Origin: Poseidonia sp.
GTDB taxonomy: Archaea; Thermoplasmatota; Poseidoniia; Poseidoniales; Poseidoniaceae
Assembly: GCA_049617635.1 (NCBI GenBank)
Contig: JBMZJQ010000005.1
Span: 1 to 58,110, forward strand
Length of the DNA: 58,110 nt
Reading direction: 5' to 3'
The position numbers and the translations under genes are program-made. The notes beneath the pieces are model-generated. The model saw nothing but the letters and a program-made list of their open reading frames with translations, was not told the DNA's origin and searched no databases. Shown in pieces: positions 7,230 through 18,709 of the stretch. How positions within the stretch are numbered: position 1 is the first letter of the stretch; the number at the start of each line of letters is the position of its first letter.

Positions 7230-7721
7230 TCAACGCATCGCCGGAAGGGTCACATCGATGAGCAAGACGCCAACGGATTCCTCGACCAACTTGAAGCTCC
7301 ATGTGCCGTCGGTTGAACCAATCGTTTGCGAATCGATCACGAAGTAATCACCCTGGGTCACCGAATAGCCCACATCCCGGTCGTGGAACGAAACGTTGGA
7401 CCCGATAACCCCGTAGACGTTGGAATCAGAAACATGCCCTGCAATCGGCAAGGACGATGTCAGGTTGGCCGGCTGCACGGTGTATTCCAAGCGAGCAGGG
7501 TCGATGGATTGGTCGAGGCTGGTGATGCGAACCACGTGGAAACCGTTGTCCAGTGCACGGACGGACACGGTGGCCTGAGGTGCAGATTTCTCAACGGTGG
7601 TCAAGGCGCCCTGCATCAACACGAACACCATGCTCGAAAGCATCACGGTGATGGCCAAGAGAAGCACGGTGGCAATCACGGGGCTCACAGCCTCGTCGTT
7701 GCGCCGAAGCGTGCCTCGCAT
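7230..7721 (-). CDS. Archaeal type IV pilin-like protein (class III signal peptide)
   Basis: Short charged leader RRNDEA followed by VSPVIATVLLLAITVMLSSMVFV, the archaeal pilin N-terminal signature, then a beta-rich domain. Confidence 0.88.
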   Translation of the reverse strand: MRGTLRRNDEAVSPVIATVLLLAITVMLSSMVFVLMQGALTTVEKSAPQATVSVRALDNGFHVVRITSLDQSIDPARLEYTVQPANLTSSLPIAGHVSDSNVYGVIGSNVSFHDRDVGYSVTQGDYFVIDSQTIGSTDGTWSFKLVEESVGVLLIDVTLPAMR

Positions 7722-11245: not shown

Positions 11246-12940
11246 ATGGACCGGTCTGCATTGTTAGCCGAACTCTATCAAGCCCGCTTTGAGGACTTGA
11301 AGGAGATTGCTGGCGCTCACAATCTGTCCAAAACAGGCCCCGTTGAGTCGTTACGAACCCGATTGATTCGAGACCTTGTCCTCAACGAGTGGGACCTCTC
11401 ACCGTCAGGCATCAAAGCCATCTCAAACAACGACCTCGGTGAATTGTTGGGCTTGTTCGGTATCAAAAAATCCGGTTCCATCAAAGCCCGTCGCCAACGT
11501 CTCTTTTTACATCTCAACCACGATCCAAAAACGCTGACTGTCGAGACCCTTGACGCCATGACTCGTGACGATCTACACGGCCTGTGCAAAGACCTCGAAC
11601 TCCCGCTCTCTGGAAACAAGCAAAGCCTCCTTGCACGGGTTGCAGGCGTGTTGGCTTCCCAAGAAAATGCATGGGGCAAGGTCAAGAAGAGCCTTCGCAG
11701 ACCCAAGGACAAAATCACGGTGCCATCCGTTCCAGCACCTGTCGTCGCAGAACCATCCATCGAAGAGAGCGTAGGTTCGACCTTCACCGGAGTTGTTGAA
11801 CAACAGGACGAGGATTGGATGTTTGAAGAAGACGTCCCCGTGCAAGTCGCTGCGACAGAAGTGGCTGCTTCGTTTGAGCCCGAACCTGCACCAGCCTCGC
11901 CACCCCCGATGATTCAACATGTCGACATGGAGGTTCACAGCCTCGAAGTCGAGACGGCGTTAATGGAACTGAATGAGCGAATGGCCGAAGTCAGGGCTTT
12001 TGCACGTGATTTTTTGATGGTCAGTTCGACCACCAACCAAGACGACATGAACGCCTTCATCGCCTCCTTGCGCCATCAAGGATTTGCCACCGACCATCCG
12101 CCCGTTCATCAAGCGGTGGCCAACATCATCATGGAACTGGACTATCAAATCCAGAACGAATCGTCCGCTGCGACCGCCATGCCTCAATCGTGGGCAGAGC
12201 GAGAAGCCCTCCGACTCTTTGAGGAAGTCCGAAGCGGGCTTCGTGACCAACTGGAGAACATTCTTGCCCTCCACAAAGGGGACCCGATCAAAGCACGCAT
12301 GGCCTTCGAAGAAGAAGGACGGGCCATGGGACTCGACCTTCGCGTCCCGAGTGTTTCCGGTCGGCTGCACGCCTTGTTTGACCTGCACATCGAAATCGCT
12401 GAATCCCAAGCCCTTCACGACCCGGTCGTCCAACGGCGCCAACGCATGATGCGCATCCTGCATCGCGGCTCGGTTCACATGCTCGAGCGGGAGCGAATGA
12501 CCATCGCTCGTTTGGAGCGGAATATCGCAGCGTTTGAGGAACTCGTGCAGACCGTGCTTGAATCCGCAGAAGAGGGCTTTGAGGAAGCTGAGCAGGCGTT
12601 GGTGATTCGCTTCCTGGAATCAAAAGGCTACGAAGTCAACACCAGCAACCTCCGTCCACGAATCCTGGCTTGTGCTGGAATCCTCGGGGCTGAACTTGGC
12701 TTCCTTTCGCCCAGTGAGATTCCACGTATCGCACCTGGTGTTCTCGTCACAGAGACCGAAGTGGATGCCATTGTCACCGAACTCAAGGCCCTGGCGTCCA
12801 GTTTCAAACCCGAGCCAACGGCGGAAGAGGAAGATGAAACGATGGTCGCAGAGTCGGTTGTTGACGCGTCGGAAAACATTCAACGTGTTCGGGGGAAAAT
12901 CGACCGCATCGATGACCTTCTCAACCGCTTGAAAGGTTGA
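11246..12940 (+). CDS. SAP-domain protein (about three N-terminal SAP-like motifs, acidic linker, helical C-terminus)
   Basis: MTRDDLHGLCKDLELPLSGNKQSLLARV is a clear SAP motif. Two weaker copies precede it (FEDLKEIAGAHNLSKTGPVESLRTRL; NNDLGELLGLFGIKKSGSIKARRQRL). Confidence 0.75.
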   Translation: MDRSALLAELYQARFEDLKEIAGAHNLSKTGPVESLRTRLIRDLVLNEWDLSPSGIKAISNNDLGELLGLFGIKKSGSIKARRQRLFLHLNHDPKTLTVETLDAMTRDDLHGLCKDLELPLSGNKQSLLARVAGVLASQENAWGKVKKSLRRPKDKITVPSVPAPVVAEPSIEESVGSTFTGVVEQQDEDWMFEEDVPVQVAATEVAASFEPEPAPASPPPMIQHVDMEVHSLEVETALMELNERMAEVRAFARDFLMVSSTTNQDDMNAFIASLRHQGFATDHPPVHQAVANIIMELDYQIQNESSAATAMPQSWAEREALRLFEEVRSGLRDQLENILALHKGDPIKARMAFEEEGRAMGLDLRVPSVSGRLHALFDLHIEIAESQALHDPVVQRRQRMMRILHRGSVHMLERERMTIARLERNIAAFEELVQTVLESAEEGFEEAEQALVIRFLESKGYEVNTSNLRPRILACAGILGAELGFLSPSEIPRIAPGVLVTETEVDAIVTELKALASSFKPEPTAEEEDETMVAESVVDASENIQRVRGKIDRIDDLLNRLKG

Positions 12941-12961: not shown

Positions 12962-14203
12962 TCAGTGCTGTTGAGCATAGAAGTTCTGAACCACCGAGGT
13001 CACGGTTTGGATGTCGGAGATACCTCGCGAGCACAAATCTTCGATGATGGCTTGGCGTTGAGAGACGTGGCGCTCGAACACATCCGGAGTCACACCTGCG
13101 GCGTTGCAAATGGTTTCTCGGAGTTTGGAGGGGATACCGGTTTCTTCGATTTGGTCCGTGGCGGCGTTGTACTTCCAAATAGCGTTCAAACGAGGTTTGT
13201 CGCCTTCCATACCAGCGATTTCAGCCACCTCGGTGATCTTACGAGCCGTTTTCCCGTTGACGTGGAGGCGAGCTTGGATGATGATCAAATCCAAGCCGCT
13301 CAACATGATGGGTGGGACGTTCATGGGCGGGTTGATCATACGCGTCACCGTTTCTTGGGCCGTGTTGGCGTGCAGGGAACCGAACGAACCGTCGTGACCG
13401 GTGTTCATGGCCGTGAGTAAGGTTGCACACTCCGGTCCACGGACTTCACCAACGATGATGCGGTCAGGTCGCATACGCAAACTGGATTTCAAACAGTCGT
13501 TCATGTCGACTTCCGGCGTTCCGTCAGGTCGCTCTCGGCGAGTCTCCATGCGCAACCAGTGGTCGTGATACACCTGCAATTCAGCGGTGTCCTCGACCGT
13601 CAGGAGACGTCGAGACCACGGGATGTACATGCCCAAACAGTTCAGCGTGGTGGTTTTACCCGAACCGGTACCGCCAGCGATAACAAAGTTGGCCGGTCGG
13701 CTGTCGAGGCCCTCAATCCACACCCACATCATGGCTGCAAGTCGAGAATTAACCGTGCCGAAGTTAACCAGGTCAATCATCGTGAGCGGGTCTTCCTTGA
13801 ATTTACGAATGGTGAGGGTCGGCCCGTCTGGCGAGACAGGAGGGATGGTTCCGTTGACACGGGAACCGTCAGGAAGACGGCCGTCAAAGATGGGGACCAG
13901 GCCCGGGCCATCGCCAAGAGGGACATTGGTGAACGAGGCGATGTTTTTCGCAATTTGCAAACCGGAATCATCGTCGATCCAAATATTGGTTCGACACATC
14001 CCGTGGTTGCGATGGGCGACTTTCACGCATTGCGTGCCGCCGTTGTACATCACTTCTTCAAGCGCATCATCTTCAAACAACGCAGCGAGATCCCCGTAGG
14101 GATTGGCTTGAATATCGCCTTCCACATGGTAGATGGGCGAAGGGTGATTGGCTTCGGTGTAAATGGTCACGCGACCGTATTGTTCCAGTATTTGTTCTGA
14201 CAT
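12962..14203 (-). CDS. Type II/IV secretion (TadA/CpaF/ArlI family) assembly ATPase
   Basis: LEEVMYNG, GRLPDGSRVN, TLTIRKF, Walker A GGTGSGKTT, Asp box TVEDTAEL, LRMRPDRIIVGEVRG, His box TGHDGSFGSLHAN. SD GGAGGT before ATG 14203. Confidence 0.95.
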   Translation of the reverse strand: MSEQILEQYGRVTIYTEANHPSPIYHVEGDIQANPYGDLAALFEDDALEEVMYNGGTQCVKVAHRNHGMCRTNIWIDDDSGLQIAKNIASFTNVPLGDGPGLVPIFDGRLPDGSRVNGTIPPVSPDGPTLTIRKFKEDPLTMIDLVNFGTVNSRLAAMMWVWIEGLDSRPANFVIAGGTGSGKTTTLNCLGMYIPWSRRLLTVEDTAELQVYHDHWLRMETRRERPDGTPEVDMNDCLKSSLRMRPDRIIVGEVRGPECATLLTAMNTGHDGSFGSLHANTAQETVTRMINPPMNVPPIMLSGLDLIIIQARLHVNGKTARKITEVAEIAGMEGDKPRLNAIWKYNAATDQIEETGIPSKLRETICNAAGVTPDVFERHVSQRQAIIEDLCSRGISDIQTVTSVVQNFYAQQH

Positions 14204-14207
14204 GCGT

Positions 14208-14939
14208 TCAACCTCCAACGGCCTTCACAGCCCCAAGATACAGGCCCATCGAGACGGCCATCCACATCGGGAGCCACCACAGCGTGTCTTTGAAACGGCC
14301 CATCATTCGACCGGAAACACCGACACCGACGGCGGAGGCAGCTGCGAAAAAGAACGAGAATGTTTGATTGAACGAGGCGATTTGGAAACCCTTGCTGGCG
14401 GGTGCGAACAACCCCACGATGAAGGCAATCAACACAGGTAAGCCAACGCTTACAAAGATGATGATAAGCATGCCTCGGCCCGAAAGTTCGGATTCTCGGC
14501 GATTCATCAAATCGTTGAGGCGCTCGTAGTCACGGCTCAAATCCGAGAGGATGTCTCGCAAGGATGAGTCTTGCTGAAGCGCCGTTTCAATCAGCATCAT
14601 GACGCGCTGCACCTGACTGGAACGGGTCTTGGCGGCGAAGGCTGACAGACTTGCCTCAAAGGAGGAAGCGTGGGCTTCTCGAAGCGTTTCACGCAAGAGC
14701 ATGGCCAACGGCCCGTCACTTGCTTCGGACTGTTCTTTCATGGCTTCTTGCAAGCCACGTCCTGCACCCACGGAATCGGAAAGGGATTCCAAAAAGGACG
14801 GGAGTTCGTTTTCGATGGTGCGACGGCGACGGCGTTCAAGCATCGGTGGAATGCCACCTCCCGCACACGCCAGAGCAATCACCGTCAAGTAAAGCAGCAA
14901 CGGAGCGTCGTTGAACGATTCAAGGATGCCAAAAATCAT
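14208..14939 (-). CDS. Type II secretion system F-family (TadB/TadC-like) membrane platform protein
   Basis: TM segment, then RRRRTIENELPSFLESLSDSVGAGRGLQEAM (T2SSF pattern), then C-terminal TMs. Operonic with the ATPase. Confidence 0.88.
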   Translation of the reverse strand: MIFGILESFNDAPLLLYLTVIALACAGGGIPPMLERRRRRTIENELPSFLESLSDSVGAGRGLQEAMKEQSEASDGPLAMLLRETLREAHASSFEASLSAFAAKTRSSQVQRVMMLIETALQQDSSLRDILSDLSRDYERLNDLMNRRESELSGRGMLIIIFVSVGLPVLIAFIVGLFAPASKGFQIASFNQTFSFFFAAASAVGVGVSGRMMGRFKDTLWWLPMWMAVSMGLYLGAVKAVGG

Positions 14940-14942
14940 GTT

Positions 14943-15524
14943 TCACAACCCCGGATCCTTGGTGTGGGCCTTCAGCCCAATGAGTGCCATGCCAACGAGC
15001 GTGATCATCAAACCCATGTTCACAACGGCGTTGATGGTTGAGGGGGGAGGCAGTGACATGAACGCTCCGAGGTCGCCCGACATCAATTGAGGCACCAACC
15101 CAACGATGGCCAAGATAATCGGTCCAATCATTCCGATGGAGAGCAAGGTTTCAGGAACACCACCAAGTTCTTCGATGTACTTCTCCACCTCATCGCTTCG
15201 TTCTTCTTCCATTCGAGCGCCTTGCTTCTTGAGCGTCTCGACCAAATCCGTGTTCTGTGTCACGTTGGTATAGAGTGTGTTGAGCAAACGCTTGTACCCT
15301 GCAGATTCGGCGACTTTCATCAAATCCTTGAGTTCACGATCCAAGCCCTTGGAGCTCCCTTTTCGCAAGCGAACCATCATGGCGGAAAAGTCCTCCGAGA
15401 TGATGCCGTAGCCTCCCCTTCCAATGGTGTGGAGGGCCGCTTCCAAACCGACACCCGATGACATCAAGACGTCCATGGTACGAATCACATAGAGGAGTTC
15501 TCGCTTTTCCTCCAGTTTTCGCAT
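14943..15524 (-). CDS. Type II secretion system F-family (TadC-like) membrane protein
   Basis: ELLYVIRTMDVLMSSGVGLEAALHTIGRGGYGIISEDF is the archaeal T2SSF pattern, followed by two C-terminal TMs. SD GAGGTGA before ATG 15524. Confidence 0.85.
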   Translation of the reverse strand: MRKLEEKRELLYVIRTMDVLMSSGVGLEAALHTIGRGGYGIISEDFSAMMVRLRKGSSKGLDRELKDLMKVAESAGYKRLLNTLYTNVTQNTDLVETLKKQGARMEEERSDEVEKYIEELGGVPETLLSIGMIGPIILAIVGLVPQLMSGDLGAFMSLPPPSTINAVVNMGLMITLVGMALIGLKAHTKDPGL

Positions 15525-15534
15525 TGTGTTCACC

Positions 15535-15888
15535 TCAAATGACGTCTTCGAGCAACTCAAAATGGAAACTCTCGTTGGAGCTGTCGTATTCCATCACAGC
15601 GAAAATGACCTTCACGTCGCGTTCTTCAAACGGGTCGTGAATGTACGGCTGACCGGTCCGGAACATGGCCACAATGCGCTTGTATTCGTCGAGCGTAATC
15701 TCGCCGCGAACGGTGTACATGGTGGATTCCGACCCTTCGTCGTGAAGATCGTCACCTTCCTGGCCACGAATCACGGTTCGTGTCAAACGTCGCGTCATGC
15801 GGACTTTCATGTCTGCATTTGCAATGCGAACCCAATCTGAACTTGATGTACCCGTTGCGGGACGAATAAAGAAATCCATTCCTGCCAT
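15535..15888 (-). CDS. Small beta-rich protein resembling phage DNA-circularisation N-terminal / tail tube-initiator domain
   Basis: RRLTRTVIRGQEGDDLHDEGSESTMYTVRGEI...GQPYIHDPF...VKV resembles the RRxxxHExPGRDGxxxEDLGxxxRxxxxxG...GxLxHP pattern. It lies 10 nt upstream of the tadC-like gene. The family call is tentative. Confidence 0.5.
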   Translation of the reverse strand: MAGMDFFIRPATGTSSSDWVRIANADMKVRMTRRLTRTVIRGQEGDDLHDEGSESTMYTVRGEITLDEYKRIVAMFRTGQPYIHDPFEERDVKVIFAVMEYDSSNESFHFELLEDVI

Positions 15889-15943
15889 GTCTGACCCCTG
15901 TAGGTTCCACATCACGAGAAGGACTTGAATGTGTTGGGCCTAT

Positions 15944-16864
15944 TTATTCACCAGCGGCAATACGGAACCACCCAAATCGTGGTTCTGAAAGGCGCCCAGA
16001 TTCAAGCAATTCGTCAAGGCACGCCTCTGCCGTCTCACGCACATGACCTCGGGCAACGGCGTTTTTCAGAATGGTTTCGTAATCGACACCCTCGCCTTGG
16101 TCGAGTTGCCCAACCGCTTGAAGCAGGAATTCACTCAAGTTCTGCCCTCCTTCTTCCGTGTCCGAGGATGCCTCATCGGTGGTGGGGAGGGACATCATTG
16201 GGGGCGGTGTGGTCGCTGCTTCGATGCGTCCTTCAGCGATATCGAGTGCTTGCATCAAATTGAGTTTGAACGGCTCGACATCGATATCGCCGTAATGGTT
16301 GCGTGACACGAGAAGACTGTTTGGCAGTCCGGCTCGTCCGTAGGCATCCATGGTCGGCTCGACTTCCAAAGAGGAGGCGTAGGCATTCATTCGCTCCATG
16401 GTGCTCTCGCAGGCATCGAGAAGCCAATTGGCGTAAACGTCCCGAGAGACCACGCAGGCTTCCTCAGGTCGCAAGGATGTGTAAACGGCCCCTTCGTCGG
16501 TTTGATACCAGCGTGTTTTGGCCGTCATCATCACCAACAGGGGTTCGCCGTCCTCAAGTCGTTCAACCCACTGGTGAGCCAATTCTCGCATCATTTCTGA
16601 ATTGTATTCGCCGATGGAGAAGTAATGCAGGCCCGTGGGGTCCCGCAACTGTCCTTGGAACAACATCGAACCGTTGCTGGTGTCCCGTTGTTCGAGGCGC
16701 TCAAGCAGTCCGGCAGCAACCACGCGATTCACCTTGGCACCCAATTTGGTGATGATGAAGGAAGGATCGTATTCACCTGAACCCTTTTCGTGAAGGGTGG
16801 CGCTTCCAAACTCGGAAGCCAACAACAGGTGGGCCGGCTGCCGAGCAATGCGTGCCCGCTCCAT
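15944..16864 (-). CDS. RPA-associated / RPA32-like subunit (OB fold plus C-terminal winged helix)
   Basis: PSFIITKLGAKVNRVVAAG...LRDPTG...SLRPE OB fold and C-terminal LLESGRLSEPRFGWFR winged helix. TGATG coupling to rpa. Confidence 0.85.
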   Translation of the reverse strand: MERARIARQPAHLLLASEFGSATLHEKGSGEYDPSFIITKLGAKVNRVVAAGLLERLEQRDTSNGSMLFQGQLRDPTGLHYFSIGEYNSEMMRELAHQWVERLEDGEPLLVMMTAKTRWYQTDEGAVYTSLRPEEACVVSRDVYANWLLDACESTMERMNAYASSLEVEPTMDAYGRAGLPNSLLVSRNHYGDIDVEPFKLNLMQALDIAEGRIEAATTPPPMMSLPTTDEASSDTEEGGQNLSEFLLQAVGQLDQGEGVDYETILKNAVARGHVRETAEACLDELLESGRLSEPRFGWFRIAAGE

Positions 16865-18549
16865 CAAGCCCACCCCCACAGAGCCCGGAGTTCCGTCGCC
16901 CGGAGTTGGGCGTCCTGCTCAACAAGGCTCAACCCGTCTGCAAGAATCATCGCACCTTGTTCGTCCACGATGGTTCGTCCGGTAATGGCGACGTTCCGCC
17001 CCAGCAACCGTTCACGGACGAGTTGGACAAAGCCGAGATCGCCGTGTTCCTCAACCGAGGCCTGCATGCCATCCTCCGTCATCTCAAGGGAAGCGAGTGA
17101 GGCTTCTTTGTTGGTCAACACGGCCGTCGTTGCGCCTGCATCATCAACCACCAAACGAAGGCGTATGTCTTGCTCTCCATCGTTTGCACCGTGGTCGTAA
17201 CATGCACCGTCGCGCAGGACGCGACGGCATTCGGTGCAACGCATGATGAAACCAGAATCCTCACGAACACTGACGACCATGCCGCTGGTTTCAATGCCGA
17301 CACGACTCGCACCGGTGGCCAACTCAGCCAGTGGCACACTGACCGCATGGTTGGTCAAATCCATTGAATCGTCCCATGGAGGCGACTCAAGCACCTCCAA
17401 CTGGTCGGCGCTGTCAACCGTGATGTCGGGAATGCCCTGCCAGGCTCGTACCCGGGCACTCTTGATGCTCACCGTCACCGGCAGATCGGCCACATCGAAC
17501 GGCAAGGTGTCCCACAAACTGATGCGGCACCGGCCTGTGGGGTCTGCGATTTGACCGGACCAGAGGAATTTTTCTTCACCGTCGCGCTCAAATGTTCGTT
17601 TTATCAATTCGGTGATTTGAACCACAGCATCAACGTCCCTTGCTCCATCGGTCAAGCCTGAAATGGTGACGTTGGTCTGCTCAGAAAGGGTTTCCAGGTC
17701 GGCGAAGTTGGCATCGTGAAACACCTCAATTCGGGTGGTGCGGCCAAAATTCAATTCAGGCGTGTTACGGAAACTACGGATTTGAGCTCCGTCGATTTTC
17801 AACAAGGTGCCCACTTCGTGGTCAAACGGTTCCCAAGAGAGGAAACCAATGGTGCCTGAACCGTCGGCGAGACGACCTCTCACCACATCGATGGAACCTG
17901 AACCGTCCTTGCGGTGAATTTGGTCTGGCCGTGATGCCAGCACCCGACCGACGATGCAAGCGTACCCGTCGGAAGGGAGTTGGTCAATGTCGACGGGGTC
18001 GTTAGAGGATGGAACCGTAGCGACCCCTTCTTTCAGCACCACGATGCGCGTGGACTGGTTAATGTTGAGGGACATCTTTCCGTTGTATTCGTTGACGCTC
18101 CCGCCTTCGATTCGAACGATGCTTCCCGCAGCCAAGTTGGCATGCGGGCCCCAGTCTTTGTAGTCCCAGCGTGTGCGTTCGCCGTTTTCTTCCCAAGGAT
18201 TGTCTTCGAGCATACCAAACGCAATTTGTTTTTCTTCCCCTCGAATCATCTGGTCACGAACGTTGTGCGTGATGATGGCCACTTCGATTTCAACATCCCT
18301 GTCTGATCCGGTGAGTTCCGACAACGCAGCGACTTTCTTCGTTTGTCGGGGTGCTCGTTCGCCTGAAGCGGTCGGTGTAGGCGAGGTGCCGCTCTTGAAC
18401 CGACGCAAGACGGAACGCATGGCATCTTGAGGAGGAATGTAGAATTCCTTCTCGTACTTGGCAAAGGCCTCGGAGATTTCGCCTTCATCAGCATCCGGGC
18501 ACTCGGCGAGAATGGCCTTCACGTAATCGGCATATTTGTCATCAGCCAT
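16864..18549 (-). CDS. rpa: Replication protein A large subunit (multiple OB folds plus zinc finger)
   Basis: Repeated OB motifs (LADGSGTIGFLSW, IADPTGRCRISLW, VVDDAGA) and a Zn finger CTECRRVLRDGACYDH. Confidence 0.9.
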   Translation of the reverse strand: MADDKYADYVKAILAECPDADEGEISEAFAKYEKEFYIPPQDAMRSVLRRFKSGTSPTPTASGERAPRQTKKVAALSELTGSDRDVEIEVAIITHNVRDQMIRGEEKQIAFGMLEDNPWEENGERTRWDYKDWGPHANLAAGSIVRIEGGSVNEYNGKMSLNINQSTRIVVLKEGVATVPSSNDPVDIDQLPSDGYACIVGRVLASRPDQIHRKDGSGSIDVVRGRLADGSGTIGFLSWEPFDHEVGTLLKIDGAQIRSFRNTPELNFGRTTRIEVFHDANFADLETLSEQTNVTISGLTDGARDVDAVVQITELIKRTFERDGEEKFLWSGQIADPTGRCRISLWDTLPFDVADLPVTVSIKSARVRAWQGIPDITVDSADQLEVLESPPWDDSMDLTNHAVSVPLAELATGASRVGIETSGMVVSVREDSGFIMRCTECRRVLRDGACYDHGANDGEQDIRLRLVVDDAGATTAVLTNKEASLASLEMTEDGMQASVEEHGDLGFVQLVRERLLGRNVAITGRTIVDEQGAMILADGLSLVEQDAQLRATELRALWGWA

Positions 18550-18709
18550 GCAACGACCCTCCAACAGGCGTGTGTGTTCGTGGCCTGTTTGGAGTACAGG
18601 CGGCGGGCTTTCGTGCGGGTTGGTTAAGATTGGACACTCCCTTGACCTCCATGGGACACCTCACCCATGACGACAGGTCATAAAGAATGCCTCAGATGTT
18701 GATGAAGAC

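Follow-up and report, generated by a model that had tools for sequence, protein, structure and literature searches.

A stretch of 58,110 nucleotides from Poseidonia sp. (GCA_049617635.1, contig JBMZJQ010000005.1, forward strand positions 1 to 58,110), henceforth referred to as the window, contains a tightly packed four-gene operon in which a small open reading frame (ORF) of 117 amino acids heads the genes of a type IV pilus motor. Comparison across the order Poseidoniales demonstrated that the small gene belongs to the pilus module in this order, and its product is predicted to adopt a beta fold of the type found in phage tail tubes and tube initiators. In the integrated reading, held at a probability of about one half, the four genes and a separately encoded pilin would form one Tad/Epd-type pilus, and the small protein would be a Poseidoniales-specific accessory of that pilus.

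All four genes lie on the minus strand. The small ORF comes first and is followed by platform 1, platform 2 and the ATPase; the successive intergenic distances are 10, 3 and 4 nt. The small ORF occupies positions 15535–15888 and starts with an ATG at 15888. The longest version of the ORF begins with a GTG at 15915 and encodes 126 aa; the ATG is favoured because most of the 120 listed homologues are 117 aa long and the alignment begins at the same Met. Platform protein 1 (14943–15524, 193 aa, TadC/EpdJ-K-like) and platform protein 2 (14208–14939, 243 aa, TadB/EpdJ-K-like) each contain a single T2SSF domain, with Pfam E-values of 6.8e-10 and 1.2e-9, respectively, and both matches exceed the Pfam cut-off of 25.2 bits. 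Platform 1 has two C-terminal hydrophobic segments with peaks at residues 126 and 166, and its orthologues share 41–74% identity. Platform 2 has a hydrophobic segment at its N-terminus and was also matched by the UpsF model at 1e-9, below the cut-off. The secretion ATPase (12962–14203, 413 aa) belongs to the TadA/CpaF/VirB11 family (T2SSE, 1.5e-41). Its nearest solved structures are CpaF (1e-63) and Archaeoglobus GspE 2oap (1.1e-63), with FlaI more distant (1.1e-43), and NCBIfam-type models for FlaI and TadA scored 253.8 and 206.2 bits, each below its own cut-off. Orthologues of this ATPase were 70–87% identical. An earlier note on this DNA, made from the sequence alone, had described four tightly spaced co-directional genes encoding a small ORF, two single-domain T2SSF platform proteins and a TadA-type ATPase, with Shine-Dalgarno sites before two of them, and this layout was confirmed. 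The two sites are GAGGTGA before platform 1 and GGAGGT before the ATPase; a third Shine-Dalgarno-like sequence, AGGGGT, precedes the small ORF at 15894–15899 on the minus strand, and AGGGGT or AGAGGT is present in most of the Marine Group IIa (MGIIa) loci shown.

Conservation shows the small ORF to be a genuine gene, and its family has neither a name nor a Pfam model. It is intact, with 63–97% identity across the family Poseidoniaceae, and its product is acidic (isoelectric point 4.8) and free of hydrophobic segments (the highest Kyte-Doolittle mean over 19 residues is 0.23), in agreement with the earlier description of a protein lacking a signal peptide and transmembrane segment. The motifs quoted in that description are present and fall in the most conserved columns; the best-conserved stretches are RRxTRTV...GEGDDLxDEGSES and GQPxIxDPFExR..KV. 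Homologues numbered 185 in a protein collection clustered at 90%, nearly all with a length of 117 aa and the named ones being Poseidoniales or "Euryarchaeota archaeon", and an exhaustive HMMER search of 1.84 billion representatives yielded 58 clusters at 50% clustering, many of them fragmentary. The small protein was matched by no model in Pfam, PHROGs or NCBIfam, and a scan of 32 further distinct family members (21 of alignment A2 and 10 of alignment A7, with the window protein counted once) gave no library match at E-values up to 1–10. A search of the PDB with the family profile found no solved structure by sequence. Fused or longer forms were absent among 8000 candidates scored, which is weak evidence against them. 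In a family tree of 27 members, 10 of the 24 inner branches lacked resolution and the order of duplications was unreadable.

Co-occurrence of the small gene with the motor was determined in an even sample of 121 Poseidoniales genomes. An ATPase orthologue (70–99% identity) was identified in 78 genomes and the small gene in 85. Every one of the 78 ATPase-bearing genomes carries the small gene, which lies on the same contig within ~3 kb of the ATPase in 75 of them; in the three exceptions (G018, G094 and G071) the two genes are on different contigs, with contig ends in G018 and G094. The gene order RPA, 311-aa gene, small gene, platform 1, platform 2 and ATPase, followed by a convergent SAP-domain gene, was kept in all six further loci mapped, which represent three families. 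The junction between the small gene and platform 1 ranged from a 1-nt overlap to a 17-nt gap in the seven loci with mapped ORFs (7/7), while the 311-aa gene is separated from the small gene by ~50–80 nt. In Poseidoniaceae the latter gap holds a motif resembling CCAACACATTCAAGTCC, which in the window lies at 15921–15937 on the minus strand, ~33–50 nt ahead of the start codon. Among the upstream sequences of 15 loci, the core of this motif, ACATT[CG]AAG, repeats across MGIIa loci with differing flanking bases, and the related forms ACGTTGAAG and ACCTTGATG are found in some MGIIb loci. The CCAACACATTCAAGTCC motif may serve the operon as a promoter or operator.

Genomes without the motor provided a further line of evidence. 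Five ATPase-lacking genomes were searched for the 311-aa gene and four were examined, G023 being left out as its gene is in two pieces. In all four, the RPA/311-aa flank and the flank formed by the SAP gene and the next gene lie a few hundred bases apart and all four operon genes are missing. Since the four genes are absent together between kept flanks, the gain or loss of the small gene went with the motor and was independent of RPA. In RNA libraries from two runs of a single study, contigs covering 15433–15724 and 15394–15647 run from the small gene into platform 1; because these RNA data are assembled contigs only, they are weak evidence of co-transcription. A complex prediction combining the ATPase, both platform proteins and the small protein (966 residues; alignments of 7 rows) gave a score of 0.00, which is uninformative either way. 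The small gene is thus spaced as if translationally coupled to the platform genes and is co-inherited with the motor and, as described below, with a pilin.

A rough genome screen for class III signal peptides identified a 163-aa archaeal type IV pilin at positions 7230–7721 of the minus strand (Pilin_N, 2.6e-10, 41.4 bits against a cut-off of 25.2), located 5.2 kb from the ATPase and outside the four-gene operon. The remark in the earlier note that the cluster has no pilin or prepilin peptidase therefore stands within the four genes and does not extend to a pilin for the system as a whole. The distribution of the pilin is that of the ATPase: it was found in 78 of the 121 genomes, in matching genera and, within family f3, in an identical set of 16 genomes. 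In Poseidoniaceae the pilin lies 5–7 kb from the ATPase on the same contig, and in Thalassarchaeaceae it lies elsewhere. In G243, from another family of the phylum, a pilin of 30% identity is positioned 2.6 kb upstream of an orthologous three-gene motor. The protein at 7230–7721 is accordingly put forward as a candidate filament subunit of this motor, encoded in trans. Peptidase_A24 (PF01478) matched nothing in the 85% complete genome from which the window comes, and had no match above the Pfam cut-off in any of the 121 genomes of the order. Weak matches, with E-values from 8e-5 to 9e-3, were obtained in 17 of the 121 genomes to proteins of 330–370 aa, two of which (G043 and G115) are encoded ~2 kb from the archaellum ATPase. 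A divergent prepilin peptidase is likely to be present. Neither a secretin, nor TadZ, nor a dedicated peptidase was found in the locus.

The module was also compared with the other type IV filament loci of these archaea. It is present in all sampled Poseidoniaceae and in 16 of the 59 sampled Thalassarchaeaceae genomes, and its distribution by genus differs from that of ArlI: in g9, g10 and g18 the module occurs and ArlI is missing, and the reverse is true of g16 and g21. Since these distributions differ, the module is not an accessory of the archaellum, and that candidate was rejected. The arrangement of the locus differs as well, because an archaellum locus brings together ArlI, ArlJ, ArlH, ArlF/G and the archaellins. 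Rinke et al. 2018 (PMC6461757) reported an archaeal flagella operon in all Poseidoniaceae and in half of the Thalassarchaeaceae genera, and no separate pilus is described in the passages of that article that were found. Two further filament loci were observed in the window's own genome. One, at C1:28238-34512, is an archaellum-like operon that encodes an ATPase (T2SSE, 571 aa) and a platform protein (T2SSF, 600 aa) and includes four more co-directional ORFs; the other, at C4:57500-62567, encodes a 516-aa ATPase, two platform proteins (339 and 527 aa) and a 153-aa pilin-like protein at the contig end.

Several observations weigh against a role of the small protein in the pilus itself. Stand-alone paralogues with 38–57% identity occur in unrelated neighbourhoods of Poseidoniales genomes (L014, 9328–9720 on the minus strand; L015, 8654–8998 on the plus strand; and L022, L023, L018 and L020), next to genes that vary from ZnuA, NikR and TM2 to SelO and a fatty-acid hydroxylase, with no consistent partner. 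Seven sampled genomes carry only a stand-alone copy and have no ATPase orthologue. In a sample of 301 Thermoplasmatota genomes, 237 of them outside Poseidoniales, a small homologue of ~100 aa was found in 7 of the 237 and an ATPase at orthologue level (49–54% identity) in 13; G243 is the only genome outside the order with both genes, and there they are unlinked. In six motor loci outside Poseidoniales, only the two platform genes and the ATPase gene are present, and the small gene is missing from the upstream position. The synteny with tad genes, for which the earlier note had proposed a survey, therefore holds in Poseidoniales and breaks down in other Thermoplasmatota. Since paralogues exist without the motor and motors without the small gene, neither the family nor the motor requires the other. 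The three-gene motor is the older element, and one copy of the small family became the first gene of the operon at or near the base of Poseidoniales.

A rival explanation draws on these findings: the small protein would have a job of its own, for example chaperoning or regulating surface or secreted proteins as a soluble factor, a function that the stand-alone paralogues and distant homologues would share, and would be co-expressed with the motor without physically belonging to the pilus machine. Of the seven distant homologues, four, from two families, lie directly downstream of genes for giant surface or secreted proteins, with gaps of ~10–190 nt (L055 and L059 of family f8, L057 and L058 of family f36; the neighbours are S8 subtilase proteins with CARDB of 1243–1256 aa, a PKD/NosD protein of 963 aa and a Big_13 protein of 863 aa). 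The other three have housekeeping neighbours, however, and together with the inconsistent contexts of the paralogues they point to no alternative partner. An independent role also fits poorly with the co-occurrence in 78 of 78 ATPase-bearing genomes, with the loss of all four genes as one cassette, and with the coupling-type spacing kept in 7/7 loci. This explanation, the main rival, was judged less probable than the integrated reading and retains an appreciable share of the probability.

The structure of the small protein was predicted with AlphaFold2 from an alignment of 19 Poseidoniales sequences, giving a mean predicted local distance difference test (pLDDT) value of 85.6 and a predicted template modelling score of 0.72. 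In the modelled chain a short strand and a long beta-hairpin are followed by a helix and another three strands. Among the Foldseek matches listed against the PDB, every row is a chain from a phage tail, tailocin, gene transfer agent or contractile injection system; the two DSR2-SPR rows among them contain a phage tail tube protein. The top matches were the monocin tube 8qhs_A (E 6.1e-4, template modelling (TM) score 0.58), the Mu baseplate 9ki1_u and diffocin (TM score 0.63). Against predicted viral structures (BFVD), 49 matches were obtained at E ≤ 0.001, including DUF6046, "DNA circulation, N-terminal", TP901-1 major tail protein and Dit-like proteins. In an all-against-all comparison with 48,161 chains by VIA-align, 49 of the 50 rows listed were tails, baseplates, necks, tailocins, injection systems or Hcp, the best having a Z of 9.3 with 111 of 117 residues aligned. 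A second AlphaFold2 model, built from 11 sequences of a distant non-Poseidoniales subfamily (pLDDT 89.8), reproduced this topology and matched known structures more closely: Milano baseplate 8fqc_U1 (E 6.3e-5, TM score 0.68; Z 10.0, root-mean-square deviation 2.8 Å over all 105 residues), cyanophage Pam3 baseplate (Z 10.4), the Mu baseplate chains 9ki1_0 and 9ki1_u by Foldseek, and tubes and Hcp at Z 8–9.7. To our knowledge, the tail-tube fold is rarely seen outside phages, tailocins, injection systems and type VI secretion systems (T6SS).

The small protein is therefore predicted to have a tail-tube or tube-initiator-type beta fold, with a beta-sandwich, a flanking helix and a long hairpin, as the earlier note had anticipated. 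The subclass (tube, initiator, hub domain or Hcp) is not fixed by structure because VIA-align rows within one Z unit count as ties. It counts against the assignment that the fold is known from predictions alone and that a Z of 9–10 is only modestly higher than the values of 7–8 common for unrelated models, so that the argument rests on the uniformity of the matches and on two independent models and not on the score alone. A prediction artefact concealing another beta-rich fold, such as that of PilZ, a known binder of pilus ATPases in bacteria, was weighed as an alternative; the PilZ-domain chain 3kyf_A was the sole non-tail row among the 50 listed by VIA-align (Z 6.7), the first alignment was shallow and low in diversity (19 rows with 62–90% identity to the query), and pLDDT fell to 64–72 at the hairpin tip. 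Such an artefact was nonetheless considered improbable, since models from two non-overlapping subfamilies agree in topology and in the kind of matches obtained, and the tail-fold chains stand 2–3 Z units above PilZ.

The upstream neighbours of the operon could suggest instead that the small gene is the third gene of a single-strand-DNA-binding module, comparable to the small RPA14 subunit. A 566-aa RPA homologue and the 311-aa gene occupy positions 15944–18564 of the window on the minus strand; the RPA protein was matched by the NCBIfam model for single-stranded DNA binding protein at 2.3e-72, below the cut-off, and the 311-aa protein, which had no family match, may be an RPA-associated (Rpap-like) protein. 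The order of these two genes and the small gene is conserved across Poseidoniales, and the beta-beta-beta-alpha-beta-beta order of the small protein resembles an oligonucleotide-binding (OB) fold on paper. The cassette comparison led to rejection of this reading as highly improbable: genomes without the pilus keep RPA and the 311-aa gene and lack the small gene (4/4 examined), no OB-fold or single-strand-binding protein appeared among the 50 rows listed in any fold search, and the spacing of 50–80 nt to the 311-aa gene contrasts with at most 17 nt to platform 1.

Sequence kinship with phage families was examined with a profile built from 54 relatives of the first 135 residues of Mu gp43, which was taken from the public record. 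By hhalign, the window's own subfamily was not significantly similar to this N-terminal profile (E 0.18–0.8), and the alignment still paired equivalent elements, namely the second strand of the hairpin, the helix and the GQP/GEL...HP..F loop. The distant subfamily aligned with a score of 24.5 over 54 columns (P 0.0018); none of 200 column-shuffled controls reached this score (mean 12.4, s.d. 2.5, maximum 23.8), and the reversed control scored 11.2. The resemblance to Mu-like motifs proposed at the outset is thus not significant for the window's own subfamily and weakly significant for the distant one. An hhalign comparison of alignment A2 with the Mu tube protein was not significant. A language-model search of ESM Atlas with both subfamilies returned Phage_P2_GpU and DNA_circ_N as the nearest Pfam-named clusters, at 0.90–0.91, which serve as leads. 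There was no match above the model threshold to DNA_circ_N (PF07157) or Phage_P2_GpU (PF06995), and it weighs against the proposed relationship that similarity to phage families lies below every library threshold. It is plausible that the family descends from a remote ancestor shared with tube-initiator or hub N-terminal domains.

Viral relatives were also sought directly. IMG/VR gave 37 pattern matches, of which none was confirmed, and the best tblastn match among 50,697 phage records had an E-value of 3, so the description of a "domesticated" tail-tube-like protein is unsupported. One unnamed ESM Atlas cluster of 51 members resembles the distant subfamily (score 0.95). Uroviricota is the commonest phylum among its few members with a record, and the cluster is a lead to possible viral relatives missed by sequence searches. 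The annotated surroundings agree with the earlier statement that no other phage gene is nearby: the 14 kb annotated around the small gene, from 6 to 20 kb of the window, revealed nothing phage-like, and no sheath, spike, T6SS or other tail or injection-system gene was present among the annotated neighbours, which are the same in six orthologous loci. That the small gene is a functionless remnant of a prophage, tailocin or contractile injection system, for which the predicted fold and the ESM Atlas cluster might speak, is scarcely credible given an intact, conserved gene with no tail gene around it and no confirmed viral relative.

The small protein was then compared with known systems. Its predicted fold resembles the N-domains of Mu-type hub proteins (Mu gp43, DNA_circ_N; the Milano and 7-7-1 baseplates), tube initiators and P2 GpU, and by hhalign the Mu gp43 N-domain has conserved motifs in equivalent places, at the hairpin tip and in the loop after the helix. 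In contrast to the Mu-type domain, which is the head of a hub protein of 400–500 aa, the small protein is a single domain of 117 aa; it is a cellular protein whose gene stands among pilus genes, and tail genes are absent nearby. Tail tubes (monocin, diffocin, SPP1, gene transfer agent and lambda) and Hcp1/Hcp5 are of similar size and belong to the same predicted fold class at Z 8–9.3; these scores tie with those of the initiator and hub domains, and the likeness to tubes is one of predicted fold alone.

The motor itself shares a CpaF-like ATPase and two single-domain T2SSF genes with the bacterial Tad motor (CpaF/TadA, TadB and TadC) and with the archaeal Epd or "system 1" pilus. In Methanococcus maripaludis, according to the parts of PMC13705601 and PMC4858521 consulted, the pilin gene lies away from the motor genes, as here, and system 1 has two platform genes. 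An additional tube-fold gene distinguishes the present locus, as none is mentioned for Tad/Epd systems in the consulted parts of these two articles, supplements aside. Makarova et al. 2016 (PMC4858521) reported many uncharacterised cytoplasmic proteins in type IV pilus loci, none of them described as tail-like in the text seen; the small soluble arCOG proteins of lineage-specific loci in that survey are like the small protein, as compared by description only. The text of PMC4858521 contains no mention of "Marine group II", "Thermoplasmat" or "Epd", and the main text of Sivabalasarma and Albers 2026 (PMC13705601) none of "poseidon", "tail" or "tube". Full-text searches returned no relevant paper pairing a tail-tube protein with an archaeal type IV pilus, although supplements may list the locus.

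Additional features were noted around the operon and in other lineages. The annotated neighbours of the locus are RPA, the 311-aa gene, the SAP-domain protein, lipid enzymes and the pilin. The SAP-domain protein (564 aa, 11246–12940 on the plus strand) aligns over its full length in cassette-bearing genomes and over only the first ~150 residues in the four cassette-lacking genomes; either the 3' part of this gene was removed by deletion as well, or its C-terminal region travels with the cassette. In two genomes of family f4, from the sister lineage within the same class (L087 and L088, from G146 and G314), a 900-aa gene, a gene for a 235-aa membrane protein, a three-gene motor and a 320-aa gene form a conserved context with no pilin and no small gene. 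Finally, in family f14, two matches to the ATPase orthologue lie head to tail in single frames of 871–903 aa (G130 C325 and C98; G140 C40), which suggests tandem-fused TadA-like ATPases.

In the preferred reading of a pilus with an added accessory, one CpaF-like ATPase, two half-size platform proteins and a pilin in trans would constitute one type IV pilus system. The product of the first gene would have been recruited from a small family of soluble Thermoplasmatota proteins with a tail-tube or tube-initiator fold. It would reside at the cytoplasmic face, because it has no signal peptide or membrane segment, and may function in oligomeric form; tube-fold proteins usually assemble into six-fold rings, and a ring of this kind is one possibility. 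Such an oligomer could dock on the hexameric ATPase or on the platform proteins at their cytoplasmic domains and serve as a scaffold, symmetry adaptor or regulator of pilus assembly. Since the motor works without the small protein in related lineages, the protein is an addition to the machine and does not belong to its core. Tube initiators nucleate tail tubes, and by analogy a protein of tail-tube lineage might form a six-fold cytoplasmic base ring that matches the hexameric ATPase to the platform and perhaps nucleates or gates the filament; this more specific picture is speculative and its odds were rated as rather low.

According to the part of Rinke et al. (PMC6461757) consulted, the Poseidoniales (Marine Group II) rank with the most abundant surface-ocean archaea and are an uncultured group. 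Attachment of these archaea to particles and other cells has been inferred from genes alone, and the present analysis defines a complete candidate pilus system, composed of a pilin, two platform proteins, an ATPase and a new accessory and distinct from the archaellum. As the small protein is small, soluble and easily expressed, the question of its role is directly testable. If the small protein is part of the motor, it would represent a new kind of component for type IV filament machines and a new case of tail-like parts reused by cells. If it forms a ring adaptor, it would provide the first structural link between tail-like tubes and type IV filaments, two great families of microbial filament machines.

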